Below are positions 19,001-63,300 of a stretch of 64,000 nt of DNA, in pieces. The translations under genes were made by a program, and so were the position numbers. The notes under the pieces were generated by a model. The model did no database searches and was not told the origin of the DNA. It was given only the letters and a program-made list of their open reading frames with translations. The stretch comes from Zootoca vivipara (lineage: Eukaryota): assembly GCF_963506605.1 (NCBI RefSeq), contig NC_083276.1, forward strand, positions 43,276,001-43,340,000. Reading direction: 5' to 3'. The stretch's first letter is position 1; every line of letters starts with the position of its first letter.

Positions 19001-22000
19001 AATGCATGTGCATGTTTGATGTGCATGCCATTCATACTTTATGCATTTGCTGTGGGAACACTGCAGAGAAAAGTTCAATAATAAATAAAACTATGTGACT
19101 CTTCTGTAGACTATTAGTATTAGTACAGTACTACCATTTTCATACGTTTATAGCTAACGGTTTCCTATAGTTTACAACTAGCCAGTAAAATTCACTGACC
19201 TTGTCTCTGATCCAGGCCTCTACATGGTCCACTTTCTGTAGAAATTCCAGGAAATCCCTACTGTCTTCAAGCATCTTTCCACGAGCAGCAACAGCAGATT
19301 TCAGTGTCTCCCACCGTTCTTGAAGCAAACGAGTCTTACGACGGATTTCCCCTGATTTAGGGTGATTCTGGCACAATAAGGCTTCTCCTTGCTTCATGTA
19401 ATTAGGAAATAATTAAATAATAAGAAAAGATGAAACACAGTATTTCCATTATGTTTCTAAGAAAAACTCAATGCCGGGGAGACACAGGGCCAAACTATCA
19501 AGGATATGGGCCTGTAATAGCAGGTTCCCTGCAGCAACAGGGGGTTGGACGACACAACCATTGCAGTTCCATATAGATTTATGACTCTGTGAAACTGGAT
19601 AGGGTTAAAAATGTGTGACCGCATTTTTTAAAACAAACAAACTGCTGATGAGAGAGCCATTATTATTTATGAATAATTTCCAGAGGCTTCCTTATAGCTG
19701 CTGCTTCTTGTCAAGGACAAGGTAGAACCAGGAATTTGTACTTATTTTTATTTTATTTTTTGCAGATAGGGAGAGAACTGGCCTCTCTCAACAGCAGTTA
19801 CCGACACTACTGTTTATCCATACAGGTTGTAACCAAGCATTTTCAGTACATGGAAACAGGTAATCTCCAGAGACCTGAAGAGATCTACACACTGGGGGAT
19901 AAAATAACTTTCATTTCAAGGCTCTTCAATCTTTTTCTTCTTCTTCTTCGGTAAAAGGTTTTAAGGCTACAGTATTCCATCTTTTAATCTGATTGTTGCA
20001 GAAGGCCCCTACAGGACCCATAGCTGCCAAGTACCCCGTATTTCCCGGGAAACCCCCGTTTTTCCTTAACGTTTCCCAGAGGTCTCCCGTTTCAGCTCCT
20101 CTCCCGTTAATCTCCCTTATTTTGGTTCCTGTCGGCGGCCATGTTTCTGGTGCCGTTTTGCTCATCTATGGACACCAGAAAATGGCTGGTGCCGGTGTCG
20201 GAAGTCACATCTACGCATGTCCGGAAGTGCATAGACGCAACTTCTGGTGTCGCTTTGCCCATCTATGGGCACCGAAAATGGCTGGCGCTGACACCGGAAG
20301 TTGCGTCTACGCACTTCTGGACATGCGTAGACGCGACTTCCGACACCAGCGCCGGCCATTTTCTGGTGCCCATAGATGTGTAAAGCGACACTGGTAGTTG
20401 TGTCTACGCACTTCCAGTGTCACGTGGCTGCTGATCCTGGATTTCTCCGTGAGAGACTTGGCAGGTATGACAGGACCTAAAGATCACAGCACCTCCATTC
20501 AATACTCACCATGTTAACAGTAGAAATTAGATCCTTGTGAGCCAGAATCTCAGCCTCAAATACTTGATGTTTCTGCAGAAGCTTCATTTTGTCACTCAGG
20601 TTGCTAAGATTTTGCAAAGATGGATCCTTCAGCTTTTGCATGCGCTCATCAATCCAGCTCTCTGCCTGTCACCAAAGAATAAGTGTGGTTAGTATTTCAC
20701 ACATATTGCTGTTGCCTTCTATGTAACACTGACATCCTTGTGTCTTAAGTCACATGAATTTAACACACTGGTTTCCCTATCAATCAGAACACATCTGAAG
20801 GACTAACAAAGACTGAGATCACCCTGGTCGTGTTCTGATAATCAAAGGGCATATTCAAAACAGGCTAAATTTAATGAAAAAGTAAAGTGAGAGTTGATCC
20901 TTGGTTGTGCTGACAAAGTACAGATTCTTTCAGAATGACAAGTTTTAACTTCTTCATATCTCTATGGCAAGAATGGGGAACCTGTGACATCCCCCCCGAC
21001 ATATTATTGGACTTCGAGATGCCAGAGAACTCTGATGAAAATAGAAACAGGAGCAGAAATTACTCGTCTGCTTATTTGTCTCATGTCCAGAACAGAAATC
21101 AATCCAGCAAATACAAGAGGTATTCACTGTCTTTTTTGCTTTCACATTTGCATTGTGTTTCCTTTACAGTGAAATTAACAGGGTGGAACAACACATTGAC
21201 CATGTAACTTACCTAATTAATAATATAAACTACCTAAGTTACATAATTTTGCCACACTGGTCACTGAGACAAATAACCCAGCTTCTTGTGTTAGATCAGG
21301 CAACCCCAAACTATGGCCCTCCAGATGTTTTGGCCTACAACTCCCATGATCCCTAGCTAACAGGACCAGTGGTCAGGGATGATGGGAATTGTAGTCCAAA
21401 ACATCTGGAGGGCTGAAGTTTGGGGATGCCTGTGTTAGATGAATGGCAGCTGGACAGAAATAGTGCTGCATGAAGGCAATACAGGGTAGAACAGAAAACA
21501 ATGCCTTGTTACATCCCTAGTTGGACTACAACTCCCATTATCCCTGGCCATTGGCCATGGGGGCTGGGGGAGATGTGCATAGCTTTTCCATACCTGTTCT
21601 ATGGACTTCTCAGACTACTGATACAGCTGGTCCACATAGCAAGCCATTGTATCAGAAAATACAGCAACCATTGGGTCAGGCATAGGCAACCTTGGCTCTC
21701 CAGATGTTTTGGAACTACATCTCCCATGATCCCTAGCTAACAGGGCCACTGGTCAGGGATCATGGGAGTTGTAGTTCCAAAACATCTGGAGAGCCAAGGT
21801 TGCCTATGCCTGCATTGGGTGATTGCTGTGAAATTATGTTCAGCCTCTTGCTTTTCATCCAAAGGGCCATAACCATCTGGGTAAGGCCAATTATGCGGAT
21901 GCAATTAATGGAATATACACCCCCAAACCCAGCTGGGTGGCTTTCTGTGTGATTGGCCCTCCCTATATTGTAATCACTCTTGAAATGTTACAGGAGCATC

Positions 22001-25000
22001 GTGGGATGACCACCCCCACCCCCAAAATACGGCTCTCATATGTACCACATTATTTGCACTACCATGGGTACATGATTAATAGAATTGGGGTTTATGGTAC
22101 TTGGGAATTACAAAATGTAATCTTGGCAATAGAATCATTCTCACCTCTGACAGATTTTGGTAGAAGAGAGCCAGCAGAAGGGCTACCTGCAGTTTTTCTT
22201 GCCTACTTTGAGAGAGATCTTTGATGCATCTTCTTCTCTCTAACATGGCATTGAGCTTGAGATCGATCTGTTTTCTTTCCAGTTCACTGTCCTGCTGCAG
22301 CCTTTTTGATTGTTCCTGAAGAGACAATTCCTGAGAAGGAAACAAGCCTAAAATCAAAGCTGTGTGTTCATGTGATATACATAATCAATCAAGGGTTCCT
22401 GTTCTGTTCACAAAGTATTATTATTTTTTCTACTGGAAGGAAATATAGACACAAAAGAGATCCTTTGAACTGCAAGTCTGAAGTTCAACCTAATGAAATT
22501 GGAGGGAATCAGAAATGCTGGATATTTGAAACTGCTGATTCTCTTTAGCCATCCTGGCTGCTGTGCCAGTAAAAATAATGTATTATATCAATGCTTTTTT
22601 TCAAGAAACATAGGTGCTGGAGCTCGCCATTAACTTCTCCCTTGTTCTTTTAGAATAGCAATGACGCCTACACCCGAGAGGTGTTGGAGCTGAGCTCTGG
22701 CTGAAAAAACACCTTTATTACTCTTCCCAACCCTAGGGCTATACCTGTTGAAATTATTTTGTCTTCCTTCAAAGTTTTCAGCTATTTTGCCTCAAGAACT
22801 TCCAAAGCCACTGAAAAAAACAACCTATCTCCCAAATGGTGGTGTGAGAATCAGCTCTTGCAGCCATGATTCTGGTTGATTTCACTTAGCACAGAAATTA
22901 TTCCAATTATCTTAACCAGTTCTTAAGTTCTTAACCAACTCTTAGGAACCAAACTGGGCATTTGCCTATAACCTAAATCAGGCATCCCCAAATTGTGGCC
23001 CTCCAGATGTTTTGGCCTACAACTCCCATGATCCCTAGCTAAAAGGACCAGTGGTCAGGGATGATGGGAATTGTAGTACAAAACATCTGGAGGGCCAAAG
23101 TTTGGGTTGCCTGACCTAAACACACCTTCCTTTAAGGTCAGGATCTTATAAGTGTTTACCTTTTCAACCTGAGAGGCCAGAAGCTTCTCAAAAGCCTCAT
23201 GTTTCTTTATCTGCTGCTCCACCTCATCCACTGTGCTCCCAAAGTCACTGCTTTTCAAATATGTCTGTGGATAATGAAAATCAATTTTGGTTAAGATTGT
23301 TATATTTGATCAAGGAGTTATTGGGACATATCCTGTTACTTCCCTGAAAGTGTGTCACCTAAGGCTAGGTGTTCAAAAGATTCCTGTAACCTCAGGTTAT
23401 ATCTTTTCTAAAGAACACACACAGTTTGTCAGATCCATTGAAAGAGTAGGGACATCTGAGCACTCCTTGAAAAAACCCACAACTAATCTTTTCCGAGACT
23501 ATTTAAAATGAGGGACAAGAAATGTCTCTCATTGCTCAGTGGAACACTGGCATGGAGAGGCATATTAATGTAAAGGCAAAATTCTTCAAATAAAACATGC
23601 AGTGGAATAGCAGTAGGTGGTAAAAGGGTTGTAAGATGGTAAGGGGTCACTGTACTATATTTTGTCTTTTGGCTAAAATATCTTCAAGGGATAAGGAATG
23701 TTGAGGAATGAGAAGCTATCAGGCTGTATTCATTAACAAACCTGAAAGCATATTTTAAAAATAAAATGAAGATTGCGGATGGTTATTGCACTATTAGTCA
23801 AATCAATCACTCAGACCATTTTAGCTGTGTTGCTTGCTCAGGGAAATTTGGATGTCTGGAAGTTACAGTAGCAGAATTCTTGTTTGAAAATGCTATTTAG
23901 CTGCTGCTATTTATCAAAGTCTACCTGCTTTCTTTTGTGATGGGACATGAAATTGCACTTGTATGGCTAAAAGGATGCATAATAGCACCTGTCTGAAGGT
24001 ATGAGTGATAGACGCAAAAGTATGGCAGTATGAAAGTGCCCTTTGGAGCCTGGTATTTTGTAGTTCTACATCCAAAACTCCAGTTGCATGTGGAAAAGTC
24101 AATTGCAGATGGACTGCTGGTCTAGTTAAGCAAAACTAAACTGCTAGCTGCTTTATACGTCTGTGGAATTTTAAATGTCACATTGAAAGCTGTCAAATCT
24201 CTGCTGTTACTAAACATTGCATGGCTTCTGCTTGACCACAATTGCGTCAAAACATGATGAGCTACATTAGCAGTAGTACAGTTTTATACAGCTTGTGGCC
24301 TGGCAAGTTGAACGCAGTCCATCAGCAATATATTATGCTCCTCTTGATACTGTCTCTGCTTTTTGCACTCCCTAACAGCATGCAATGTAAACAAGGGATC
24401 TATTGAATCCTTGGCAGCCAGCCATACATGGTTGGTGGGCTGCATTTGGCTTGATACAGACCACAGGTTGTGCAAGTCTGCAGTAATAAATCTAGCTAGG
24501 GTTGATGACATGCAGAAAAATGTATTTACTAAGTTGTCCTCAATAACAGGAACGGATTCAGCTAGATCCTGTGCATGCTCACTTGGAATCCAGTCCTGCT
24601 GATTTCACCGAGACTCAGGAGCTGTACACCAGATCTAGTATTATATCAGACTGAGGGTGGAATAAGGCACATATTGATTTTGTTAGATGCCTTTTAAAAA
24701 TGTAAACATGTGTGTTTTTATTACTATTATTATACAGCTTAGCCCCCAAATAGGCTTCTAAGCAGTTTGCTGAGCAGTTACACAAGCTTTGAAGTCTAAG
24801 CATCAAAACATTAAATTAAATTAAATTACAGAATAAAGCATTTCCATAAAACACTAAAATTTACTTCCACAACATATCCACATCAACATGTACCTATGAT
24901 CAAAGACTGCCTAACATTCTGCCATTTCCCTACACGGAAATAATATTTGCACCATAACTATCCAGCTGATGTGAAATGCAACAAATATTCACAGAGCAGT

Positions 25001-28000
25001 ACTTTACACAGTATTATAAATGGGATTTCTCATTCATCCCCCGCCCCCCACATTCATGGCCTTCAGATGCCACTTTATCTGAAGCTGAGTAAGATTATAA
25101 TAGAAAAAAATTCCTTCAGTAGCACCTTAAAGGCCAACTAAGGTTTTATTTTGGTATTTTGGTATGAGCTTTCGTGTGCATGCTTTAAGGTGCTACTGAA
25201 GGAATTTTTTTCTATTTTGCTTCGACTCAGACCAACATGGCTACCTACCTGTAACTAAGATTATAATGTGCTTGTCTGGAATACACATGTGCCCATTCCA
25301 AATAACGATGGGTGGTGACACAACACATGTATTGGTCCTGCGTGTCAGCCCTGCCCTAACACTCCACACACAGTGCCTGCAAGTGTATAAACTGTATGCA
25401 CATATGCTGTGGGCAGGGGGTTTATGCCCTTTTATTTTTTCAGGGTACAGACCACACATTGAAAGCCTACCTGCATAAAAGCTTGCATGCCTTTAGGGTC
25501 TCTGTGCAGAAAGTCATATGAATGTGTAGAGCAGGCATCCCCAAACTTCGGCCCTCCAGATGTTTTAGACTTCAATTCCCATCTCCCCCAACCACTGGTC
25601 CTGTTAGCTAGGGATCATGGGAGTTGTAGGCCAAAACATCTGGAGGGCCGCAGTTTGGGGATGCCTGGTGTAGAGCATTGGGACAGGGGTGGTGAATGAG
25701 ATTCTGCTTCCTTCCCGCTTTCCCTGCATCCATTCACGTAGCACAGCTGTTTGCCTCTGGCTATGGGGCAGGGCTTTCCCTGCTCCATTCCAGGGACCAC
25801 AACAACAGAATTAGGTTTTAATAAACACACCGAGTCACATTTTTCTGTCATCAAAAAAAACCATTTATTTATTTTTGAAACATCTCCCAGGAAAATGAAA
25901 TATTATGCAAGGTATGGCATGGTGGCAATGTCAAGATGCTTGCATCTTGAGCTTTTGTATAGAGATGTAGAATGCAGGGCCCCAGAATCATGACTTAAGA
26001 TTAAATTCTACCCTTTGCCTCTGTGCTAGTCTCACTACAAAAACATTATGGAAAAAGTAAGACATAAGAAAAATCAGGCGATTCCCCCCCTCAAAAAAAC
26101 AACCTTTTTCATAAGCAATGACAAACATAATGAGATTACAGAATGGACTATGGATGAGTAGAAACGTCTTTTGGTTTGGGGCTTTTCAACAGGTTTTAGA
26201 TCATTTCAGCTGAATCCATTTCAGCTGATCATTTCAGCTGAAATGTTATCTATTTTTAAATTCCAGCTCCCAACATGCTAGCTTATATGCAAGGAGTTGG
26301 GACACAGCAAGCAAAAGAAAATGGTGGTGTTCTTTTTAAAAATTTCATAATGACCCTCATCAACTAGGCTAGTAATGAGATTAGCATGATACCCACCACC
26401 ACCAATGATATAATGACCGGTTTTCAGGTCACACACCCCTTTCTTCAGCTGGCTGACAGGCTAATATAGCATGCACAGAAATAAAAAGAAAACTTCCCAA
26501 GCACTTTAGCTTTTAAAGCATCCAGACTTCTTTTCAATTATACCATTTAATGGGTATCTGGCAAAACCAGAAATTGATGGGATGAGAGACCCTGTCAGTA
26601 GCCAGCCAGCTTTCAAGCCACATTTTAGTCAGGGGAAATTCAGCCATATGAGTAGAGTTCTGACATACCCAAACACACACAAATATTTTTCACTTAAAAC
26701 TCATATTTTTGGGTCGTTCTTACAACTCACATTTGTTTTGTTCCTGGTGAAAGCTAGAAGAAGTAAAATTCGAGCAGCAATTGACAAGTTAGCATCTAAA
26801 ATTAGGAACACAGACAAACCTATCCAAAGAAAGGAGTGAATCTGTCCCCACAGTCTCGCTGTTCATAGGAAGAAACAAATAACTCAACTTTAGGGGGGGA
26901 AACAGAATTACATTGGGTGGCCTTCTTCACCACTACCAGAAAAAACAACAGCAACAAAGAACAACAGTTGAACAGATACTAAATTCAATTCAAACATAAA
27001 AAATCATGGTTATGCTTGTTTTTTATAAGTTTCTAAAATGGAATGGAAATCTTCACCACTCTCCGCCCAGCTCCAAAGGAAGCAATTTTTACAGAGATAG
27101 AGGGACACCATGCACTCTCACCAGTTCTGTGGGATGCTGTACGCGCCTGCATGTTTGTCGCAAGTGTATCTTGATCCGCATTTCTTATAGTGTTTGGCTC
27201 CTTGGAAGGGTTTGACTGTGAATTTGCATCATATTGTTGCAAAGGTTGGAATTCAGGACAGCAAACAGGGTTTATTGACAGTGAGAAGCCAGAGCCAATA
27301 TAATCAGTCTGGAACGCAGGAACACCTGTGTTTGAACCTGATGCTCTGATGAAGACCGAAGGAGCTGGGCTTTTTCTGAATTCCTTTATCACTTGAATAG
27401 GGAAGGATGTCCAAGGGGTGGCAAGTATCAGGGTTATTTTGGAAACCTTGTGGCAATCTGGAATTATCCTAGTGCTGGAGGTCCTCCCAAACTCTTTGCC
27501 AGTTGAATGACGGTTCTGAAAGACAACCAAGTCAGGATCTAAATGTGCATTTGCAACGGTCCTTTTGCCAACAGGATCATCTCTTTTAGACACCGTAGTT
27601 GGAGATAACCATATCTCTCTGGAAACTGCTTGCTGGGGAAGACCAGGACACTTAGCCATGGAGGTGACATGAAGCTGTGTAATCTGAAGATCTGCAGAGC
27701 TTCTTGAGGGGATGGCTTGATGGGTCACCTGAGGACCTGTTGCAAGACTGGAAGATGCTGACGACATGTTTTTTCGACGAGGTAAAAAGAGACTGGAATA
27801 ACCATGGCTGCTCACTTGAGAAGCAGTCCTAAATGGCTTTACTGCTATACTGCAAGTTGAAATATAAAGCTTTACTGAAGCATGGAGATCTGGAAGCTGA
27901 GCTTTGCATGGGCTGTAACCATGCCGTATTGGCAGCTCTGAACTACAAGGTGTCAGAGCTGTATGTAGTTTTTTGCTCTGAGATGGAATTGCACACAGAG

Positions 28001-31000
28001 AAACATCCAGACGTGATGTCCAACATGGTAGAGCTCTGGAAGCAGCAGCAGGTGGGAAAGGTACCGCAAACTGCATGGAACCAGTGTGATCAGGAGAAGA
28101 ATGACAAGCACTCCAGTCGCATCCTGAGCACTGCTTGCTGGAGATGAGCGACGACTGGGCACCAGCACTGCTGTAACCATTGTACTGAGGATCTCTGTGA
28201 AGTGCAGGACGCGCTGACTTGATGCCAGGAGGATTAACACAACTGTTGTCTTTCCCGAAACCATTCCCCTTATCTGTATGTGCCAAGACTATATCCAGCC
28301 TTGAGCTGTAAACCTCAGAAGATAGCGAGTGAGACGGTGAGATGTCATTTCCTGGCAAGGTATCTGCGGGTGATGAATGAGTTGGAAAATACCAGGCTGA
28401 GTCTGATAAAATTGCTGCTGGTGGCATCCTCTGGAAAGAGCTGCCCCAGGCAGCTGATTCGGGGGCCAGCGATGGGGTCATTTGACTGGAAGACAACATA
28501 ACTTCCACAGTTGAAATGTAGATGGGTGTGGTCGAAGTCTTGCTGCGATGGTCCGGGAATGACATCCTGCAGTTTTAATCCTAAACTCGGAAGACCAAAG
28601 CTGGAGACGCTTCTGTGCTCTGTATTTTAAAACACACTTTTCATCCTTTTTCTGTTGGCACTGGAAATTTCCATTCTCTCTTGGGTGTGAAGGAGAGGTG
28701 AAGAGCAAATAAATATTTCTCAAAAAAAAAGAGAGAGGAAGTGATACAGAATCTGCAACTGAATGGAGGAGGAGAAGCAGTATTCCTTCAGCACAACTGG
28801 CGGTATTTATCCTGTCTGCAGCATGTCAAAAGAGTGCAGGAAGCAGACAGAGAGATGAGCGAGAATGAGTCTCTAAACTAGTAGCGATGAGGCAGAAGTC
28901 AAACCAGAAATGCTATCCAAAGATGGATGCTGACCTTATTACAATTTCTCCAGATAAACGGATTAAGCGCCTAGCTCACCAGCACTTCCATTGCCTTGAG
29001 AACAGCAGATCGTAATGTGCTCTGCTGCGGTTAAAAGCAAGAGAGCTGTATTCCTCTCCCTCTCTCAGTCACTGCCTATCTGCACTCAGAATAGCAAGAT
29101 CTCTGTTTAACAGGTCTTAGAAGAATTTCCTACAACCGTTCCAAGTAATGGCACACCAGAAAGTCAGTAATAAAAAAGATAGATGTTTGCCTAATTTCCT
29201 CCATATGTGCTCTTATTTACTTTAGAACCAAGCACTCCTAGGCTAAACCTTGCTGAAATCCTTCGAAGGCTTAAGAAACTTGGATGTAACCTAAGATGCT
29301 GGCACACAGTCAACGCCATCACACTGGCACAGGGAACGAATGGGGGAAAGTTCTCATTCAGAATACTGCTGAATGCTTTTCACTATACACCACCGCAGGG
29401 GTAGCCTCTGTATCAAGGTATGCACAGCACAGCCCACGCGCAAAATGATGAACAGCTTGGGCTCTGCTTGTATCCACAGTGATTATAAAAAACAACAACA
29501 GCTATTCACATTCATGTGACTGTGTTTGTGACACCATCAACACCCCTCCTACCCAAAATACAGAGAATGATGAATTGCACACTGCCAAGACAGACTGTTT
29601 TTCAAAAAGAGGATCACTTGAGCCAACCAAAACTGTCAACCTTTCTGCTAAAAGTAACTAGGAATTTCCACCTGAAGCCTTTGTGGACGCAGTGAGAAAA
29701 TGCAAATATTTAAATGCAACTTGGTCCTTCTAATGTGGGGTGGGGCCGGGGCCGGGAGAGTCAAGGTCATATAACCAGGACTGGTTCCCCTTCCCCCAAT
29801 TTCAGTTGTGCAAGAACTTTTTTTTTACTACTTAGCAAATGTCTAGCATCCTGAGAATGCATTACCTAGTGAGGTCTCAATGGAGAGCAGTGTGAGACCA
29901 AGGTTAGGGCCTCATACCTTCTCATTGCTCCTCATCAGTTCCTTTCACCAGTCTTGGAGCATGTTATCTTTGCTTTGTGATGTAGCTAACCGCTGCTATC
30001 ACTTTAAAAAGCTGCTTCCATCCCAAAGTAAGTATCAGTTGGGGGATTCTTATCAGGAAGAAGAAGAAGAAGAAGAAGAAGAAGAAGAAGAAGAAGAAGA
30101 AGAAGAAGAAGAGGAGGAGGAGGAGGAGGAGGAGGAGTTTGGATTTGATATCCTGCTTTATCACTACCCAAAGGAGTCTCAAAGCGGCTAACGTTCTCCT
30201 TTCCCTTCCTCCCCCACAACAAACACTCTGTGAGGTCAGTGGGGCTGAGAGACTTCAGAGAGAAGTGTGACTAGCCCAAGGTCACCCAGCAGCTGCATGT
30301 GGAGGAGCAGAGACACGAACCCGGTTCCCCAGATTACAAGTCTACCACTCTTAACCACTAAAATAATAATCTCAGGGTGGCAAGGTCCCCATGAGAGAGA
30401 CGGGAAGCACAACTCAGCAAGTCTAATGACTATCATAGGGTTCTCTACAAAATGTAGCAAATAATAGCATTAGTATCGATCCAAAATGAAAATAAAATAA
30501 TAATCCTGACAGGCAGTGTTGCAGCTATCAAACCATCTTGTAAGGAGATCCTCACGATAAGACTAGACTGACCAGACTGATCTGGGTTATGATCCAAACT
30601 GAATCTGGTGAGTCCTCTTTAGAATCCATGTTCTATAAACTCCTCATCATTCCCTAGGGAGAGGTAGGGCTAATGGAAAAGTAGGGTTTTAAGTGATACA
30701 CCATGTGGCTTGTTGCATTTTGCAGCAAAGGTCCAGTATGGTGAGTTGTATTAACATGGCATCAATGGCATGAGTATGTTAAATACATTAGCAACAGAAT
30801 AAATAGATGAGAATGCGGAAAAAACATGGCATCAGTGAGCAAATGCACTATTACATCCTTAGTACGTAACTGTTTAGGAACTTTCCACAAAACGTTCCAC
30901 ATTTATAAGTCTGGAATGTGCAAAAGCTTCTCTAAGAAATGTTTCTTGTTTTATCAAAACTGTTTTGGCTTCCTCTGAAATTCCTCAGATGTTTTGCCCG

Positions 31001-34000
31001 AGGGGGAAACTTCACTTTGAACACAATGAAAACTTTTAAGTACAGATGTAATAGGTTTCAAAATCACCACCCACTGTGAATCATAAAAAGGTACATTTTA
31101 TCTAATAAACACTCTGCATTTGAAGGCAAGTTCTTGGCTAAGCCTGATCAAGTAAACGCCAAGGCACCATTAATATACAGTGTACCTCGCAAGACGAATG
31201 CCCTGCAAGACGAATGCATCTTGCGATCTGATGGTGACTCGCAAGACGTATTCATTTTGAGAAAAATTTGTCTTGTGAATCACGGATTACCATAGGAATG
31301 CATTGAAATTTAATTAATGCATTCCTATGGGCAAAAAAAGAAATTTCAATGCACTCCTATGGGAAACCGCGATTTGCAAGACGAATTTTTCGCAAAATTA
31401 AATTCGTCCTGCTAGGTACCACTGTATCTATTTTTATGCACACCTCTTAATATATGTATTTTTGTAAACATTGTTTGGTTGGTTGAAACATTTGGATAAA
31501 ATGTGGTCCTCCAGAGGTCGCTGGACTATAATGTGTGTTATCTCTGACCATTGGCCATGCTGGCTGGGATTGATGGGAACTGCACTCCAAAAACATTTGG
31601 AGGGCTACAGGCTCCGCATACCTTTACTAAGAAAAGGCAAGGAACAGTAGGGCTCGTGCAGCCCAACCAGAGGTGTCCGGTGAAACATGGGGAGTTTCCT
31701 ATTCTTTCACCCACTCCCTTCACTGGCAGAGCCCTGCAGCCACTGCTGGGCCACTTCCACTGCAGATGATGTGAGCTGGAAGCAACAGGATTCCCTCGGC
31801 AGCTTCAGCTGAAGCTTAGTCCTCTGAGGTTCCAGCTACTCCTCTGTTTCCGGGACAAGGGCTTGATTTCAGTGTATGCATAAGTTATGATGCTTAGGAA
31901 TTGGAACCTTGACCCATTCCTTCTAGGGACGGTGCTAAACTGGGTGAAGCAACTGCTCCCTGAACATTTCGAGAGCTGTAGTTGTGTTACGTTTCCTGTA
32001 TTGTTTTAAATGAGACCATCTTGGCTGTGAGCCCTGGAAGATCTGCACCCTGCCTTGATGGCCTTTTCCCATCTGGCCTGGGAGGGTGGAGTGCTGACTG
32101 ACCATAGCTGTCAAGTTTTCCTTTTTCTTGCGAGGAAGCCTATTCAGCATACCGTAAGGGAATTTCCCTTAAAAAAAGGGAGAACTTGACAGCTATGTGA
32201 CTGACTCCAGCCACAAAAGCTGAGGCTGTGGAACAGATTCTTGGGCTGGAGTATTGTTTACGGGGAGTTGGGAGAGCTTGTTGCTGTTATTGATATTATT
32301 GTTGTATCGTTAGTTTTAGATCTTATGATTTATGTGGAAATTGTTTCCATTTGGTTGTGTACTTTTTGATGTATTTTATTTATTTACGACTTCCTGTTAT
32401 GTTTGTAATTATGTAAATCTTGTCATGTTGTAAGCCGCCTTGAGCATAGTTTCAACTGTGGAAAGGTGGCATACAAATAAAATGATGATGATGACGACGA
32501 CTAGGCATTGATTATTATTGGTGCTCATGGTGCCTTGGTCAGTGGAGGTGCACTAGGGGTGGGGAACCTCTGGCCTGTGGGCCAAGCTGGGTCCACCAGG
32601 CCTCCCTTTTAGCCCACTAGGTTATTTAGGGCAAGTGATGATTGAAAGATGAGCAGCCCTGCCCACCTGCCAGGGGTGTGGAGATCTGACCGTCCGGCCA
32701 GAAGAGGTTCCCCACCTCTGAGGTAAACCATAGCCATTGTGGATGTAGCCATTGATAGCCTTATCCTTTTTTAAAGTCATCCAAGTTAGTGACCATCCCT
32801 ACTTCTCGAAGGATCAGATTCCATAGTTTAACTATGGATGCCACGAGATTCTGCTGTTTTATGTCCAACATTGCCACAACAAGCATGTGTGTGTATGTAT
32901 ATACAAGGGAGATGACAAGGCTTGCCCCATCCAGCTCTTCTTCGCTTCCCATCATACTACCACCATTTACCTACCTCTTGTGAGTTTGAGATATTTTCTA
33001 GGTGCTCGCAGTCCCTGTAAAACATCTGCAGAAGGTGGATCTTCTCCAGCCATTCCTTCTTCTCTGCCCACTTGCGGTACACACTGTCCTTTTCTTCCAA
33101 CAGTGCCTGCAATGTGCCTTGGATCTGATATAAGAAAACAACAGAAAATGTCCATGAGAATCCACAAAACAGTATGAGTGATGCTTGTTATGTGAGTGAT
33201 GACTTGGCTATGCTACTAGGGCTCAGGATTTTGGTGAAAAGGAAACAACTGTCTGTTTTCACAAACCTGGGTCTGGATATGTTTCAGTAACCCATTTTCC
33301 CTCTGAGGAACATCCAGTCATTATGATTGTATCTTTACTGCTCTTTAATTGCAGCACATACACAAAAGGAATAACTGGGTAGGAAGACAACTTCTAGAAA
33401 CACTGGTGAGCAATGTGTGTTGATGAGGAGTCCACATTATGCCTACGTACGTCTTTTGTTGGCATTTTCTGTTCCAGCAGCAGTTCTTGTCCCAGCTGTA
33501 GAACCCGTTCATACATGTCACCACGGGCCTCAATCTCTGCCAACAGCTGCTGGTGCTGAGTCAGCTCCAGATCACTAGTAGAGATGTCTCGAATTTTGTC
33601 CTTCATCATCATTTCTCTCATCATTTCTGATGCCCAGGAGGAATAGTCTCGTGCCTGAAAGCCAAGACAAAAATAAAAGATGACGGTCAAGGATTATGAA
33701 TGGCATCCACCTGTGCCATGCTCAGACCCACTGAAAACAATGGGCGTATCTGAAGTCCATTGGTTTCAACAGGTCTACTCCCAAGTAGGATTTAGTTGGA
33801 TTTAACCACTATAGCTTGGATTGGCAATGTTGAATTAATGCATGGCAAATGAAAATGACAGCTAGAATAAGCCGCCTGTGGCTGCTTGTGGCACTGATGA
33901 GAGTTTCATAGCCTGCTGCTGGGAACAGACATCCCTTTCTTTACATGGAACTTTTGTGGTCACTCTGTTTTGCTCTTGCAGTTTCTCTGAAGCCAGAACT

Positions 34001-40000: not shown

Positions 40001-43000
40001 GGGAATTATAGTCCAAAACATCTGGAGGGACGAAGTTTGGGGATGCCTGATTTAGTGCCTTCCTTGATGTCATTTTTGTGCCAGGCAAAGACCACTTTTA
40101 TTTTCCCATGTGTTGTTTAGTCGTTTAGTCGTGTCCGACTCTTCGTGACCCCATGGACCATAGCACGCCAGGCACTCCTGTCTTCCACTGCCTCCCGCAG
40201 TTTGGTCAAACTCATGTTGGTAGCTTCGAGAACACTGTCCAACCATCTTGTCCTCTGACGTCCTCTTCTCCTAGTGCCCTCAATCTTTCCCAACATCAGG
40301 GTCTTTTCCAAGGATTCTTCTCTTCTCATGAGGTGGCCAAAGTATTGGAGCCTCAGCTTCACGATCTGTCCTTCCAGGGAGCACTCAGGGCTGATTTCTT
40401 TAAGAATGGATAGGTTTGATCTTCTAGCAGTCCATGGGACTCTCAAGAGTCTCCTCCAGCACCATAATTCAAAAGCATCAATTCTTCGGTGATCAGCCTT
40501 CTTTATGGTCCAGCTCTCACTTCCATACATCACTACTGGGAAAACCATAGCTTTAACTATACGGACCTTTGTCGGCAAGGTGATGTCTCTGCTTTTTATG
40601 ATGCTGTCTAGGTTTGTCATTGCTTTTCTCCCAAGAAGCAGGCGTCTTTTAATTTCGTGACTGCTGTCACCATCTGCAGTGATCAAGGAGCCCAAGAAGG
40701 TAAAATCTCTCACTGCCTCCATTTCTTCCCCTTCTATTTGCCAGGAGGTGATGGGACCAGTGGCCATGATCTTGGTTTTTTTGATGTTGAGCTTCAGACC
40801 ATAATTTGCGCTCTCCTCTTTCACCCTCATTAAAAGGTTCTTTAATTCCTCCTCGCTTTCTGCCATCAAGGTTGTGTCATCTGCATATCTGAGGTTGTTG
40901 ATATTTCTTCCGGCAATCTTAATTCCGGCTTGGGATTCATCTAGTCCAGCCTTTCGCATGATGAATTCTGCATATAAGTTAAATAAGCAGGGAGACAATA
41001 TACAACCTTGTCGTACTCCTTTCCCAATTTTGAACCACTCAGTTGTTCCATATCCAGTTCTAACTGTAGCTTCTTGTCCCACATAGAGATTTCTCAGGAG
41101 ACAGATGAGGTGATTAGGCACTCCCATTTCTTTAAGAACTTGCCATAGTTTGCTGTGGTCGACACAGTCAAAGGCTTTTGCATAGTCAATGAAGCAGAAG
41201 TAGACGTTTTTCTGGAACTCTCTAGCTTTCTCCATAATCCAGCGCATGTTTGCTATTTGGTCTCTGGTTCCTCTGCCCTTTTGAAATCCAGCTTGCACTT
41301 CTGGGAGTTCTCGGTCCACATACTGCCTAAGCCTGCCTTGTAGAATTTTAAGCATAACCTTACTAGCGTGTGAAATGAGCGCAATTGTGCGGTAGTTGGA
41401 GCATTCTTTGGCACTGCCCTTCTTTGGAATTGGGATGTAGACTGATCTTCTCCAATCCTCTGGCCATTGCTGAGTTTTCCAAACTTGCTGGCATATTGGG
41501 TGTAGCACCTTAACAGCATCATCTTTTAAAATTTTAAATAGTTCAGCTGGAATATCATCACTTCCACTGGCCTTGTTATTAGCAGTGCTTTCTAAGGCCC
41601 ATTTGACTTCACTCTCCAAGATGTCTGGCTCAAGGTCAGCAACCACACTACCTGAGGTGTACGAAACCTCCATGTCTTTCTGGTATAATTCCTCTGTGTA
41701 TTCTTGCCACCTCTTCTTGATGTCTTCTGCTTCTGTTAGGTCCTTACCACTTTTGTCCTTGATTATGGTAATCTTTGTACGAAATGTTCCTTTCATATCT
41801 CCAATTTTCTTGAACAGATCTCTGGTTTTCCCCATTCTATTGTTTTCCTCTATTTCTTTGCATTGCTCATTTAAGAAGACCCTCTTGTCTCTCCTTGCTG
41901 TTTTTTGGAAATCTGCATTCAGTTTCCTGTATCTTTCCCTATCTCCGTTGCATTTTGCTTGCCTCCTCTCCTCCGCTATTTGTAAGGCCTCGTTGGACAG
42001 CCATTTTGCTTTCTTGCATTTCCTTTTCCTTGGGATGGTTTTCGTTGCTGCCTCCTGTATAATGTTACGAGCCTCCATCCATAGTTCTTCAGGCACTCTG
42101 TCCACCAAATCTAAATCCTTAAACCTGTTCCTCACTTCCACTGTGTATTCATAAGGGATTTGATTCAGATTGTATCTTACTGGCCCAGTGGTTTTTCCTA
42201 CTTTCTTCAGTTTAAGCTGGAATTTTGCTATAAGAAGCTGATGATCTGAGTTACAGTCAGCTCCAGGTCTTGTTTTTGCTGATTGTATAGAGCTTCTCCA
42301 TCTTTGGCTGCAGAGAATATAATCAATCTGATTTCGATGCTGCCCATTTGGTGATATCCATGTGTAGAGTCGTCTCTTGTGTTGTTGGAAGAGAGTGTTT
42401 GTGATGACCAGCTTGTTCTCTTGACAGAACTCTATTAGCCTTTGCCCTGCTTCATTTTGAACTCCAAGGCCAAACTTGCCAGTTGTTCCTTTTATCTCTT
42501 GATTCCCTACTTTAGCATTCCAATCCCCTGTAATGAGAAGAACATCCTTCTTTGGTGTCATTTCTAGAAGGTGTTGTAGGTCTTCATAGAATTGGTCAAT
42601 TTCACTTTCTTCAGCACCGGTAGTTGGTGCATAAACTTGGATTACTGTGATGTTAAAAGGTCTGCCTTGGATTCGTATCGAGATCATTCTGTCATTTTTG
42701 AGATTGCATCCCATTACAGCTTTTGCCACTCTTTTGTTGACTATGAGGGCCACTCCATTTCTACTACGGGATTCTTGCCCACAGTAGTAGATACGATAGT
42801 CACCCGAACTGAATTCGCCCATTCCCTTCCATTTTAGTTCACTGATGCCCAGGATGTCTATATTTATTCTTGTCATCTCATTTTTGACCACATCCAGCTT
42901 ACCTCCACTCATGGTTCTTACATTCCAGGTTCCTATGCAATATTTTTCTTTACAGCATCAGACTTTCCTTTCGCTTCCAGGCATATCCGCAACTGAGCGT

Positions 43001-48300: not shown

Positions 48301-51300
48301 TTCAGTATGTGTGGGAAAGAGGTGTGAAAATAATTTGCCTTGTAAGATAAGAACACAAGAAAAGCTCTAGTGGATCAGACTGAAGCCCGATCTACTCTTG
48401 ACCTATCTACATTGACCAATTGGGGTATGGGAGCAATAGCACTTCCTTTCCGTTGATCCCCAGCATTGAGAACATATTGTCTCTGATCAGCTTTCTGACT
48501 AGTAGCCATTGATAACTAGAAATAGACAAGTAACATTTGGCAGGATAAATTATTCTGGAAAGCTGAATGCTTGGTGGATTAAAGTTACTACCCTATTTCT
48601 TAACTTGTAACAAAGAATCAGTGGTTTTCTATTTGCTACATTGGCTTTATCCAGCAAAAAATATATATCAGGGAATATGTTTTTTGGTTTCTGAAATTTT
48701 AGAGAGGGGTTGCCATTCTGCATTGCCTTTTTCAACCATATGTGGTTTTTTTAAAAAAAAATTGCTGTCATGTTGAAGCATAAACTTTTTAAAAACTCCC
48801 TGTCACTAGTAACACCAGAGCTAAGTTTAAACATGTGTCTCATGTTCTGAATATTGTCAAGCTGAGGTGTTTCATTCTGACACTAATTTTCCACAGAAGA
48901 AAGTAAAAACAGATTATTCATGTAACTTCTAAAATATGCTGGCAAGATCACCCAGTCAAGTAGGAAGGGGGGAAATATCCATTATTTCATTCTTTATCGT
49001 GTCCTCCCTCAAAGAGGGCACGTGTTGAGGTGCAACCTGGCAACCAAACCCTGTGTTGTGGGTGGGTACGATTGGATAGTCACAACACCCGATTGGTAGG
49101 TCCCTTGTTGCTGGGTTGAATCAGGCCAATGGGACACTAGCCAAACCGATCAAGGGACCTTTATATGCCCATGCATGGGGCTCAGAGCTTCCTCTTTTGG
49201 TCAGTGCATCAGAAAACCCACCCACCTCTCCCTACTTTTAGGGCTTGCGCGCTTGACCTTGCTATGCCGTCATGTGTTGTCTGTCGTTGGGACAGGGGCA
49301 CGGCAGGAATTTCCCCACTTGGCTGGTGCCTCTTGGGTTTCGCCTGCCGCGTAGCAAATCATCACAACTTGTAAGGTTGCGGATAGGCTCTGGTTCAGGT
49401 GATAGGGATGGGGATGGGGATGGGGGAGCGCTCTCACCATCCCTATGTGAAGGGTATTCTGTTAAAGGAATCCAGGGACTCTATGGTTTGGTCAACCCTG
49501 TGAGGGGGTTGTGCCTAAATAAAGTTGTGGCCTAAATTCTGCCAAAAACCAAACCAAGATTTGTGTCTTGTCTGAATTTATTTAAGGAGGGAGGTTTAAA
49601 GGTCTAAACACGCAAATTACATCGATATGGAAGAATTCTAGGGAAACTGAGTAATGTCCTCAACTTGGACCCCTATACCTGAAGGGCCACCATTTCCCCA
49701 TTTGAAGTTGCCTGGATCTTGAGGTTGTCATGTGAGGCCCTTCCCTACATGACAGATCCAGGGTGTGGTGATTGAGGCCTTTTCTGTATGGAATGTTGTC
49801 TCCAAGAAGGCCTTCCATGTGCGAACATAAGAACAGAGCAAGAGCCTGATGTATCAGGCCAATGGTCCATCTAGTCCAGCAATCTGTGCTCACAGTGGCC
49901 AACAAGATGCTTGTGGGAAGCCCACAAGCAGGACCCAATGCAATAGCACTCTCCTCCCCTGTGGTATACAGAAGCATTAGTGTCTCTGACTTTGGAGGCT
50001 GAGATAGCCATCATGGCTGGTACCAATTATCCTCCATTGATTTGTCCAATCCTCTTTTAAAGCCATCCAAGTGGGTGCCCATCACTGGCTCCTGGGGAAG
50101 CGAGTTCCATAGTTTAATGAATCATAGAATCATAAGAATTGGAAGAGACCACAAGGGCCATCCAGTCCAACCCCCTGCCAAGCAGGAAACACCATCAAAG
50201 CATTCCTGACATATGGCCGCCAAGCCTTCGCTTAAAGACCTCCAAAGAAGGAGACTCCACCACACTCCTTGGCAGCAAATTCCACTGCCAAACAGCTCTT
50301 ACTGTCAGGAAGTTTAGGTGGAATCTTCTTTCTTGTAGTTTGAATCCATGGCTCCATGTCCGCTTCTCTGGAGCAGCAGAAAACAACCTTTCTCCCTCCT
50401 CTATATGGCATCCTTTTATATATTTGAACATGGCTATCATATCACCCTTTAACCTTCTCTTCTCCAGGCTAAACATACCCAGCTCCCTAAGCCGTTCCTC
50501 ATAAGGCTTCGTTTCCAGGCCCTTTGACCATTTTGGTTGCCCTCCCCTGGACACGTTCCAGCTTTTCAGTATCCTTCTTGAACTGTGGTGCCCAGAACTG
50601 GACACAGTACTCCAGGTGAGGTCTGACCAGAGCAGAATACTGTACAGTGGTACTATTACTTCCCTTGGTCTAGATCAGGCATGTCAAACATGCGGCCCTC
50701 CAGATGTTTTGGCCTACAACTCCCATGATCCCTAGCTAGCAGGACCAGTGGTTGGGGAAGATGGGAAATGTAGTCCAAAACATCTGGAGGGCCGCAGGTT
50801 TGACATGCCTGGTCTAGATGCTATACTCCTATTGATGCAGCCCAGAATTGCATTGGCTTTTTTAGCTGCTGCATCACACTGTTGACTCATGTCAAGTTTG
50901 TGGTCTACCAAGACTCCTAGATCCTTTCACATGTAGGTGTCCCCCATCCTGTATTTGTGCCTTTCATTCCCCCCCCCCAAGTGCAGTACTTTACATTTCT
51001 CCCTGTTAAAATTAATCTTGTTTGCTTTGGCCCAGTTGTCTAATCTGTTAAGGTCATTTTGAATGATTCACTGAATGAAGAAGCACTCTCTTTTATATGA
51101 CCTGAATCTTCCAACATTCATCTTCACAGAATGTCCAAGAGTTCTAGTCTTAGAGAGCAATAACTTTATCATCATTTAGGTGCCAGGCATTTTAGATTTC
51201 TTGGGCATTTTGGAAGCACCAAATGTTTGGATGTTTTAATTGTATGCTTTTAAAATGCTATATATTTTCATTACTGCCTTTTGTTCCTGTTGTAAATTGT

Positions 51301-60300: not shown

Positions 60301-63300
60301 TGAGAAGTCCAGGAGGTGGGGTTTGCATGTTCAGCAGATTAGCCTTAATCCCACATCATGGTGCAAGCATATTTATTCCTTCATTTATCATTTTTATCTA
60401 TTTCATAATACTGTACAGTGGAACCTCGGTTTATGAACACCTCGGTTTATGAATTTTCGGTTTACAAATGTCGCGGACCCATTTGGAATGGATTAATTCA
60501 CTTTCCATTACTTTCAGTGGGAAAGTTCGCTTTAGTTTATGAACGCTTCAGTTTATGAACAGACTTCCGGAACCAATTGTGTTCATAAACCGAGGTACCA
60601 TTGTATTTGATTGTGGAAAAAACCTCAAAACGGTTTACCAAAAGATTTTATTTAAAAAACCCATTAAAAATTGCAGCAATACTTTAAAACATACAGCAAT
60701 ACTTTAAAACATAAATTACTAAAACAGATTAAAATTCACAACTTCATTATTCTTACAGCAGTTTCGGAGGTGGCATCAGCTATGTTTTAAGTCATAATAA
60801 ACTACAGCTTATTATGGCAACAAACCAAGGAAAGTCTGGGGCTGAGGCATTCCATAGACTCCTCTCTTCCTCTGGCACAGCCATAAGCAGGAGACTAGAA
60901 GATTTCATTTTCTTTCTGATTAACTTAAATTCAGCATTATATTAAAAGCCTAAACTGTGGTTAATTTTAATCTTAGTTAACTTCAGAAACCATGGTTTAA
61001 AGTTTCAAAGAAACCATAATTAAGATTAACCACATTTTGTTGGGTTCAGAGCACATGACAAGCTGTGGTGAACCAAAAACAGAAGAAAAAGTTTCTGATC
61101 TCCTACTTTCAGTTGTGTCAGGAAAGGGAAGGGGAAGAGGGGTATACAGGGCCCAGTGCTGACCTAAATTCATTCTCACCACAATAAACCATTGCTTACA
61201 TGACGTTCAAACACAGCCACTACCTCTGGCATATCTTCTATCTCTGCCTTCTTCATTGTGCAAGCAAGCAGCCTTCACAATAAACTTGTCAGTGAACATG
61301 CCTAGGTTTTTCCAGGTAGAATAACCTAGGCTTTGCTAATGTCTCACTACAAGGTTTTCCATGATATCAGAACACGACATTCTTGAAAACAAGAAATTTT
61401 CTCTACTCATACAACTCATACGTGTATAAAAGACATATATAAAAATACATATATAAATGCTGTCTCAGTTTTCTGCAGAGGAGAACATTGAGGTTTTTTT
61501 TAGTGGGGGAGAATTAATAGCAGATATATGCAAGGTAAAGGTAAAGGGACCCCTGACCATTAGGTCCAGTTGTGACCGACTCTGGTGTTGCGGCGCTCAT
61601 CTTGCGTTATTGGCCGAGGGAGCCGGCGTACAGCTTTCAGGTCATGTGGCCAGCATGACAAAGCCGCTTCTGGCGAACCAGAGCAGCACACGGAAATGCC
61701 GTTTACCTTCCTGCTGTAGCGGTACCTATTTATCTACTTGCACTTTGACGTGCTTTCTAACTACTGGGTTGGCAGGAGCTGGGACCAGGCAACGGGAGCT
61801 CACAAGGATTTGTTGAGGTATTTTTATATCTCATCCTAACTCTATAAATATTGGATGAGATCCAATGTGGCCTGGAGGAGATATTTTTTTAAAAAAATTA
61901 TACCAAGAATTTATTACCTCAGACACAAATTACTAACTTCTACTCTGAATTTGTAGCCATAAGTATTTACCTCAAGATTATTAGTTCGGAGAAAGGCCTC
62001 ATGGCTCGAGAGAGCAGCATGGATGCCATTGATTTCTCTGTTGAATTTCTGAAGTTCAACATCTTCCTGGAGCTTCTTCCGCCGCTTTACCCACAATTCA
62101 TCTAACTCATTCCTTTGCTGAGCAAGCTTTTGCACAGACTCACAGATTTCCAAAGCCTTGGTGTTGAATGGGCCATCCATTATCTTCTGACCCAATTCTT
62201 GCAGCTGGTTAAACCTGTTAAAGTTCCACAAAAATGGCATGTATTATTGTCATAAGTGAAAACCACATCTTCATCAAGAAAATGCATATTTCCTTAAGAG
62301 GGTAGCTGGAAGTCGGGAGGGTTTCCTTCCATTCTGCAGTTTTAATCTGAAATCTTAGGCACCCTGCTGAGTCCAGAGCTCAGAAACTGCTCACACTAAT
62401 AAAATTCCCTGTTGCAAAATGCACCTAGAACAATGGGAGTTTCAAGCACTGATGCAAATCAATCAATCTTTATTGTGAAAAAATTCCTTCAGTAGCACCT
62501 TAAAGACCAACTAAGTTTTTATTTTGGTATGAGCTTTCGTGTGCATGCACACTTCTTCAGATACAGTGAAATGGAAGTTTCCAGGCACTTATGTAGAGAA
62601 GGGGTGGGGAGGGGTGGGGATGGGGAGGGGTGGGGATGGGGAGGGGTGGGGATGGGGAGTGGGGATGGGGAGGGGGTGACCAACACGGCTACCTACCTGT
62701 AACCAAATCTTTATTGTGGTCAAAGACCAGACAGCAAAATTAACAACAGCAGCATATGCCACATCTGGCTCAAGAAGTGGATGTAATTAAAAACTCTATA
62801 AATCTATTTACATTAAAATAGCACTCCTCCTGCTAACGTCTGTATTCCAGAGATTAAAATCATTACTCATTCGTGAGCCAAATAATAATAAACCTATGCA
62901 GTATGTGGTCTCTTTCTGTTCTAAGGGAAGTGGGGGACTTTGGAAGCAACTTTGAAGGGGTATTTTAAAGGTCTAACAGATTATATTTCCACACTTTACT
63001 TTGCTGCACGTTCTGTGATTTTAAATCTCTTTCACCAAAGAGTACTTGCCCCAAACCTGGATCTAGGCATCCAGCGAATTCTCATTTTTCATTATACCCA
63101 TATCTTTTTTTCCCTTTTACCAAACCAACATGATGGGAATTGTAGTTTAACGGAGGCAGTGAGAGATTTTACTTTCTTGGGTTCCATGATCACTGCAGAT
63201 GGTGACAGCAGTCACGGAATTAAAAGACTCCTGCTTCTTGGGAGAAAAGCAAGGGCAAACCTAGACAGCATCTTAAAAAGCAGAGACATCACCTTGCCAA

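Follow-up and report, generated by a model that had tools for sequence, protein, structure and literature searches.

A large intron of the beta-V spectrin gene (SPTBN5) in the lizard Zootoca vivipara contains a long open reading frame (ORF) of its own, which raises the question of whether this frame is a gene and, if so, what its product might bind. We analysed 64,000 nucleotides (nt) of contig NC_083276.1 (43,276,001 to 43,340,000; hereafter the window, to whose own numbering all coordinates refer), which hold about 37 SPTBN5 exons on the minus strand. The ORF occupies the same strand as its host and lies in a phase-0 intron of 9,710 nt (23265-32974, from the exon ending ..SNSQE to the exon starting TYLKSSDF). 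An account made earlier from the DNA letters, here called the original prediction, had placed it at 27084-28520 and had seen in its product an array of filamin-binding-like strands; a single minus-strand ORF is indeed present, with a slightly longer span, running from an ATG at 28565 to a stop at 27033 as one exon of 510 codons plus stop. On the sequence evidence presented below, the nested ORF is a real coding gene under selection. We put a probability of roughly 55% on its encoding a disordered scaffold of the Refilin or myozenin kind, whose six spaced beta-strand motifs are predicted to bind several class-A repeats of filamin.

A conserved gene nested in an SPTBN5 intron

A single-sequence search with 7,701 candidates returned 30 relatives of the ORF at 45-65% identity over 77-100% of its length, the closest being lizard sequences. 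Profile searching of 1.84 billion representatives gave three clusters, among them the Xenopus laevis protein OCT64858 (E 7.5e-49), and a second profile, with 39 matches among 7,999 scored, added the second X. laevis copy (OCT68554) and an unnamed amphibian-like protein. Orthologues range over squamates, turtles, birds and Xenopus, with both start and end conserved: in a set of 115 relatives, which is redundant and includes fragments, the start motif is found in 104 and the C-terminal VKI[SC][ILV]PF in 103, the 12 without this end comprising five spectrin fusions, two truncated records and five frog-type proteins with short extensions. RefSeq holds standalone uncharacterised gene models for three turtles, a woodpecker and a sparrow, and the orthologue loci (LOC115650119, LOC128837431 and LOC106629516; XELAEV_18041097 and XELAEV_18039856 in Xenopus) are all named uncharacterised or hypothetical. 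In SPTBN5 models of pigeon and snake, the nested ORF lies between the same two spectrin exons as in the lizard, so that the nesting is common to sauropsids.

No mammal or fish protein was among the matches, which does not prove absence, since the index-free profile was built without frog sequences. Pfam assigned no family at E 1 to the lizard, turtle and bird proteins and none at E 0.1 to two frog proteins; the family profile met one chance match in the PDB (E 1.4), and the ESM Atlas held one unnamed cluster at 0.75 for the ORF and nothing for the Xenopus protein. Metagenome contigs yielded 205 pattern matches, of which none was confirmed as orthologous DNA. Within the Z. vivipara genome the ORF is single copy, with zero paralogues and one weak match containing stops (E 0.03), and an Rfam scan of positions 23000-33200 gave no match. 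We found no description of the gene in the literature on SPTBN5 nested genes or on multivalent or disordered filamin partners, a survey in which the accessions were not queried and subscription papers lay mostly outside the scope.

Six spaced strand motifs under selection

The product is rich in Ser (84 of 510 residues) and Pro, and basic (47 Lys and Arg against 32 Asp and Glu). Eleven 9-mers had been singled out in it, the clearest of the form x-x-S-x-h-x-h-x-h (h, hydrophobic); all eleven belong to this single minus-strand frame. Counting from the ATG at 28565, the six strong ones have the residue numbers given in the prediction. These six filamin-type strands are M1, YISTVEVML (residues 16-24; 28494-28520), which takes the form YVSKLDLTL in frogs; M2, YSSRLDIVL (86-94; 28284-28310), and M3, WTSRLDVSL (182-190; 27996-28022), with identities to frogs of 0.67 and 0.89, respectively; M4, YISTCSIAV followed by KP (234-244 with the dipeptide; 27840-27866), its Pro standing at position 11 as in integrin beta7; M5, KVSKITLIL followed by ATP (373-381; 27423-27449), which has a conservation of 0.95 and resembles the migfilin peptide; and M6, IGSGFSLSI followed by NP (423-433 with the dipeptide; 27273-27299), the weakest of the six, in which birds and turtles mostly have Ala in place of Ser3.

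With h restricted to V, I, L, M, F, Y and W, the pattern occurs five times against 1.34 expected (p 0.009, 5000 shuffles), YISTCSIAV fitting only when Cys is counted as hydrophobic. It is also enriched in five of five relatives and reaches three to five times the shuffled frequency across six of six proteins tested; two amphibian-type proteins contain it six times each (p under 0.001). Conservation peaks on the same segments. Across 28 sequences the mean column conservation is 0.88 in the six motifs and 0.69 in the rest, a value attained by 0 of 20000 random placements, and lizard-frog identity is 0.61 in the motifs against 0.18 elsewhere (p 5e-5). Both the excess over shuffled controls and the conservation peak that the original prediction had named as checks were thus borne out, as was its inference of coding selection, the six strong motifs being more conserved than the remainder of the protein.

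In a clade-weighted alignment of 38 sequences (3 frog, 9 squamate, 3 turtle-like and 23 bird, groups partly inferred from identity), the six sites have Ser at position 3 at a frequency of 0.91 and a hydrophobic residue at positions 5, 7 and 9 at 0.99-1.00, against 0.00-0.05 at positions 4 and 6, which are polar; Pro reaches 0.01 or less inside the motif and 0.33 at position 11. Order and spacing are maintained from frog to bird, with linkers of about 45-140 residues. No DNA repeat underlies this recurrence, as had been supposed: the three direct-repeat families (14-18 nt) have no copy at a motif, and the ORF contains no tandem array. Admittedly, the pattern was defined after the sequence had been seen, and the protein is rich in Ser. 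A chance ORF, or chance motifs in a genuine one, is nevertheless refuted by intact orthologues from Xenopus to birds, by conservation that peaks on the motifs and by enrichment in distant orthologues, and we assign it a negligible probability.

Resemblance to published filamin ligands

The three filamin ligands named in the original prediction, GPIb-alpha (PMC5484675), migfilin (PMC4554727) and integrin beta7 (PMC1948075), are each confirmed in print, and their peptides, together with that of integrin beta2 (PMC5882645), were the only source of our filamin profile, a choice made to avoid circularity. Among 502 windows of the ORF, the profile placed M1, M4, M2, M5 and M3 at ranks 1 to 5, in this order, and M6 at rank 7, with FRKSPAPSV at rank 6. 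The six highest scores add up to 36.3; shuffling the columns gave 13.7 (p 0.0002) and permuting the profile gave 22.0 (p 0.028). When one ligand at a time was left out, five or six of the six motifs stayed in the top six. A proline after the strand, as seen at several of our sites, is described for solved filamin ligands (PMC4554727). As a positive control, both Refilin genes of the same genome were found, and the top three strands in the last exon of each scored 5.8-11.8, overlapping the range of the ORF. The filamin-ligand reading therefore held in part: the six strong motifs match published ligands in register and passed an independent profile test, while the five weak ones fell short of it.

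Several observations weigh against this reading. On the lizard sequence alone the filamin profile is non-significant (p 0.22 and 0.07), the permuted-profile control is marginal when ligands are left out (p 0.02-0.07), and the six motifs score 3.7-8.5, under the 8.7-15.3 of held-out true ligands. The profile itself consists of four peptides, two of them from related integrins; strands that alternate in this way and contain a Ser are common to beta-augmentation in general; and a search of the PDB with a six-motif profile, which has low power, gave 0 matches at E 10. Finally, the RNA reads that support the gene are few and come from 6% of two runs, as detailed below.

If the six motifs do bind filamin, each strand would pair with strand C of a filamin immunoglobulin (Ig) repeat (4, 9, 12, 17, 19, 21 or 23), with motif positions 5, 7 and 9 turned towards the C-D groove, as in GPIb-alpha, migfilin and integrin tails. 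The linkers would let one chain bridge repeats in one or more filamin molecules, and the scaffold could cluster filamin, compete with integrin tails and, much like Refilin, prefer the force-opened repeats 19 and 21. The account of how ligands add a strand at the C-D face, of how repeats 19 and 21 are masked and of which repeats are alike follows PMC4554727, PMC1948075, PMC10164935, PMC10889191, PMC13020024 and PMC3143143.

A second class of conserved strands

The weaker motifs of the original prediction, which include [36 protein letters not shown] and WCPSISVKI, do not behave as filamin sites. At the four blocks scored, the filamin profile gave at most 0.8, and conservation of the five as a set is borderline (p 0.05 and 0.27 in 28 sequences, 0.07 between lizard and frog). 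HTGSMQFAV can be dismissed as a filamin site, its identity to frogs being 0.15 and its rank outside the top ten of the profile. Three of the weak motifs are instead top matches to a different profile, built from the calcineurin-binding PxIxIT peptides PRIEIT, PVIVIT, IAIIIT and PKIIIT (PMC6728138, bioRxiv 2021.05.23.445342); the hypothesis behind this profile was formed after the alignment had been seen.

Four P-x-h-x-h sites, three overlapping weak motifs and one new, are the top four windows of the PxIxIT profile (p 0.0002 with shuffled columns, 0.044 with permuted profiles). In order of rank these PxIxIT-like sites are ADLQIT (residues 291-296; 27678-27695), which reads PALQIT or PTLQIT in birds, turtles and frogs; PSVFIR (402-407; 27345-27362), with the wide pattern in 32 of the 38 sequences and PTIFIK or PAIFIS in others; PDLVVF (344-349; 27519-27536), with the loose pattern in 31 of 38; and PSISVK (488-493; 27087-27104), with the wide pattern in 34 of 38, PSIAVN in birds and a broken register in three frogs. 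They score 7.6-10.7, compared to 10.7-17.7 for held-out peptides, and M1-M6 reach 0.9-5.3 on the same scale, so that each profile picks out its own set of blocks.

That the four sites, all in the C-terminal half, would dock calcineurin is a tentative prediction, to which we give clearly less than an even chance. The published filter P-x-x-x-[IV]-[TDH] (PMC5156906) is matched at residue 291 in 28 of the 38 orthologues, namely in frogs, turtles and birds, with 40 matches overall against 28 expected. Against calcineurin, the same position matches in none of the nine squamates, Z. vivipara included, where the Pro is absent, and the second docking motif, LxVP ([NQDESRTH]-[YTDFILV]-L-x-[VPL]-[PK]), gave 0 matches in the 38 sequences with 7 expected.

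The gene may also be multivalent and its strands serve another partner that binds by beta-augmentation, such as the small heat-shock groove, SUMO, the HP1 chromoshadow domain, LIM domains or other Ig domains, or else calcineurin alone. The HP1-type PxVxL and the small heat-shock IxI/V motifs fit the same four P-x-h-x-h sites; IxI/V occurs nine times in the ORF, and cores of the SUMO-interacting motif (SIM) type four times, among them PIQVI and the conserved C-terminal KISIP. SIM arrays, however, differ from a basic chain in which position 8 is free (I, S, T, A, M or D) while positions 5, 7 and 9 are hydrophobic, and the lizard ORF contains no TQT, the anchor of LC8 ligands, no core of the RIP homotypic interaction motif (RHIM, [IV]Q[IVLC]G) and, at the motifs, no LC3-interacting region (LIR). 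As for calcineurin alone, the P-x-h-x-h class is conserved as well as the first class, and the calcineurin groove is described as binding non-consensus hydrophobic strands (bioRxiv 2021.05.23.445342), but the low PxIxIT scores of M1-M6 speak against it. As none of the other partners accounts for the conserved Ser3 together with an aromatic position 1, we regard this alternative as doubtful. A C-terminal PDZ ligand was considered and rejected, the C-terminus not being kept in frogs. An SxIP match is present at residue 209.

Predicted structure and further conserved blocks

AlphaFold2 gave a mean predicted local distance difference test score (pLDDT) of 31.6 and a predicted template modelling score (pTM) of 0.30 for the full chain, and 42.4 and 0.20 for residues 360-510, with no residue reaching 70. 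These values fit a chain that is likely disordered, but may also reflect the shallow alignment of 38 sequences. The full-length model contains twelve short strands, and both models a terminal hairpin, which would suit strands that pair with one another, as a loose intramolecular sheet, homo-oligomers or filaments, with no need of an outside partner; Refilins, too, are reported to be rich in beta structure and to aggregate in the unbound state (PMC3384578). The model of residues 360-510, however, loses all strands except the hairpin, which, together with the low pLDDT, argues against self-pairing, although weakly in view of the shallow alignment, and we consider such self-pairing unlikely.

The most conserved block of the protein, [19 protein letters not shown] (residues 378-396; 27378-27434), extends M5 and includes PIQV. 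Segments conserved to the same degree as the six motifs had escaped the original prediction, namely [18 protein letters not shown] and, at the C-terminus, RVVKISIPF. The conserved strand at this end of the protein, [11 protein letters not shown] (27036-27068), is predicted at low confidence to form the hairpin with residues 491-497. Two further conserved blocks, LL[MLV]P (residues 257-262) and [RK][EDQ]IW[LM]SP (residues 315-322), at about 27600-27800, fit neither profile; the latter, whose last residue is an invariant Pro, is a possible proline-directed phosphosite.

Transcription and relation to the host gene

Read evidence comes from four mapped runs of 22 listed, none of them on record as RNA, the RNA status of X1 and X2 being a guess. 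In the raw runs X20 and X22, of which about 6% was read, depth over 26311-28716 is 0-3.7, with a single mate direction, which in most stranded libraries denotes minus-strand RNA. Contig pieces from X1 and X2 tile 25857-29084 with gaps between them, and one spans the ATG unspliced (28503-28755). Reads continue past the stop of the ORF into the 3' untranslated region (UTR), where an AATAAA at 25864-25869 (minus strand) is a likely polyadenylation signal, the lowest listed X1 piece ending at 25857. All four runs lack depth in bins 29118-29919 and 23504-23904, and both raw runs lack it in the bins with the flanking spectrin exons (32727-33900 and 21900-22701). A separate transcript of about 3 kb would account for the sparse stranded reads and the AATAAA. 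This picture is weakened by the very low depth, by the 3' bias of X22, by some depth of X1 and X2 in spectrin-exon bins, by two X2 pieces at 24338-24680 and by a joint analysis that covers 15 of 47 read joints. The co-regulation with spectrin that had been suggested for the ORF was not supported, since in these sparse data the two stranded runs cover the nested gene but, repeats aside, do not reach the spectrin exons on either side.

Could the ORF instead be an alternative SPTBN5 exon, for example the first exon of a short beta-V spectrin with a motif-array head? Five database models (P0005, P0030, P0065, P0091 and P0250), from a gecko, two pigeons, a partridge and a snake, fuse part of the nested gene as an exon to the spectrin exon starting YLKSSD; three of them, all from birds, share an exit after PIQV, and the lizard ORF contains two phase-0 donors (7/9 each, at residues 251 and 280). 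Taken together, however, the five models differ in their junctions, with three exits and three entries among them, and the bird exit has no equivalent GT in the lizard. The end of the ORF is conserved, and therefore the whole frame is translated; reads cross its stop, and no joint to a spectrin exon is among the 15 of 47 listed, the spectrin exons being barely covered. A candidate 3' splice site at 28580-28603 (minus strand), 15 nt upstream of the ATG, at which no read joint was seen, is followed by an in-frame TAA, which the upstream spectrin exon would hit at once if spliced there. This site can thus not fuse spectrin to the ORF and likely serves a 5' UTR intron; the bird N-terminal extensions LGLSFRM are consistent with the same site. 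We therefore hold the alternative exon to be very improbable and the fusions to be likely mis-annotations, several SPTBN5 models having absorbed the nested gene, and conclude that the latter is likely a separate, independent gene rather than a part of SPTBN5.

Upstream of the ATG, donor-like sites at 28979 and 28934 (minus strand, 7/9 each) could pair with the acceptor at 28580 to form a 5' UTR intron, and four short upstream ORFs of 5-15 codons lie within 28991-28644. The 3' UTR contains a 13-nt tandem in three copies (26200-26242).

Comparison with known filamin partners

Refilin A and B (FAM101, Cfm1/2) are small, Pro-rich, helix-free proteins whose filamin-binding segments BD1-BD4 turn filamin into an actin bundler (PMC5087682, PMC3384578); according to the latter paper, of 2011, Refilin, with its four segments, is the sole filamin partner to cause this switch to bundling. 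The nested protein, judged by its sequence, would likewise carry several filamin-type strands in one helix-free chain, and strands of the same pattern, FASSVQLEL and YRTTLNYSL, occur in the genome's own Refilin exons. It differs in having no match to PF15068, which the Refilin exons match at 5e-49 and 3e-51 (profile comparison gave a probability of 0.05%), in its length of 510 residues against the 209 positions of that model, and in its motif spacing of 45-140 residues, compared to about 15 in Refilins. By eye, the lizard ORF contains no DSG, as required by the N-terminal PEST/DSG(X)2-4S degron of Refilins, and Refilins have introns and loci of their own.

With GPIb-alpha, migfilin and the integrins beta7 and beta2, the motifs share the nine-residue register, an aromatic or aliphatic residue at position 1, Ser3, hydrophobic positions 5, 7 and 9 and often a Pro just after the strand, and differ in Arg or Lys at position 4, Asp or Glu at position 6 and scores below those of held-out ligands. 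The structurally characterised filamin ligands that we surveyed have one site each, on a receptor tail or a LIM adaptor, whereas the ORF combines six in a single chain that lacks any further domain. Six widely spaced conserved sites, if genuine, would make this protein a natural probe of avidity across the seven class-A repeats and of force-gated binding.

A precedent for joining filamin and calcineurin, as predicted here, is provided by the FATZ/myozenin/calsarcin proteins, hubs without canonical domains that bind filamin-C and calcineurin (PMC8163081). The nested protein lacks a Pfam (calsarcin) match, no alpha-actinin site or class III PDZ end was identified in it, and its C-terminus differs in frogs. 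Another parallel is AKAP5 (AKAP79), a disordered scaffold whose PxIxIT-groove sites comprise a main one and several that are weaker (bioRxiv 2021.05.23.445342), to which homology is not expected; unlike AKAP5, the ORF has no PKA helix, and no lizard site matches the published PxIxIT filter. By these comparisons the nested protein belongs to neither the Refilin nor the myozenin family, and its likeness to them would be one of working mode. In a wider and rather unlikely reading, it would represent an unnamed tetrapod protein family, an adaptor consisting of motifs only, with six strands that sense force-opened filamin repeats and four that hold calcineurin by its PxIxIT groove, which couples actin tension to calcium-dependent dephosphorylation, stayed within the beta-V spectrin gene and was lost or became unrecognisable in mammals; the second motif class would then tie a phosphatase directly to filamin tension.

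Other features of the window

The host intron also holds a (GAA)n/(GAG)n tract (30057-30137). Another SPTBN5 intron contains an open 946-codon frame for an endonuclease and a reverse transcriptase (40117-42957, minus strand; Pfam RVT_1 1.5e-40, Exo_endo_phos), which we take to resemble a long interspersed nuclear element (LINE) of the RTE/BovB type; a shorter piece similar to it lies at 62925-63755 on the plus strand. A 159-codon frame at 50195-50674 (minus strand) presumably represents the end of a CR1-type reverse transcriptase.

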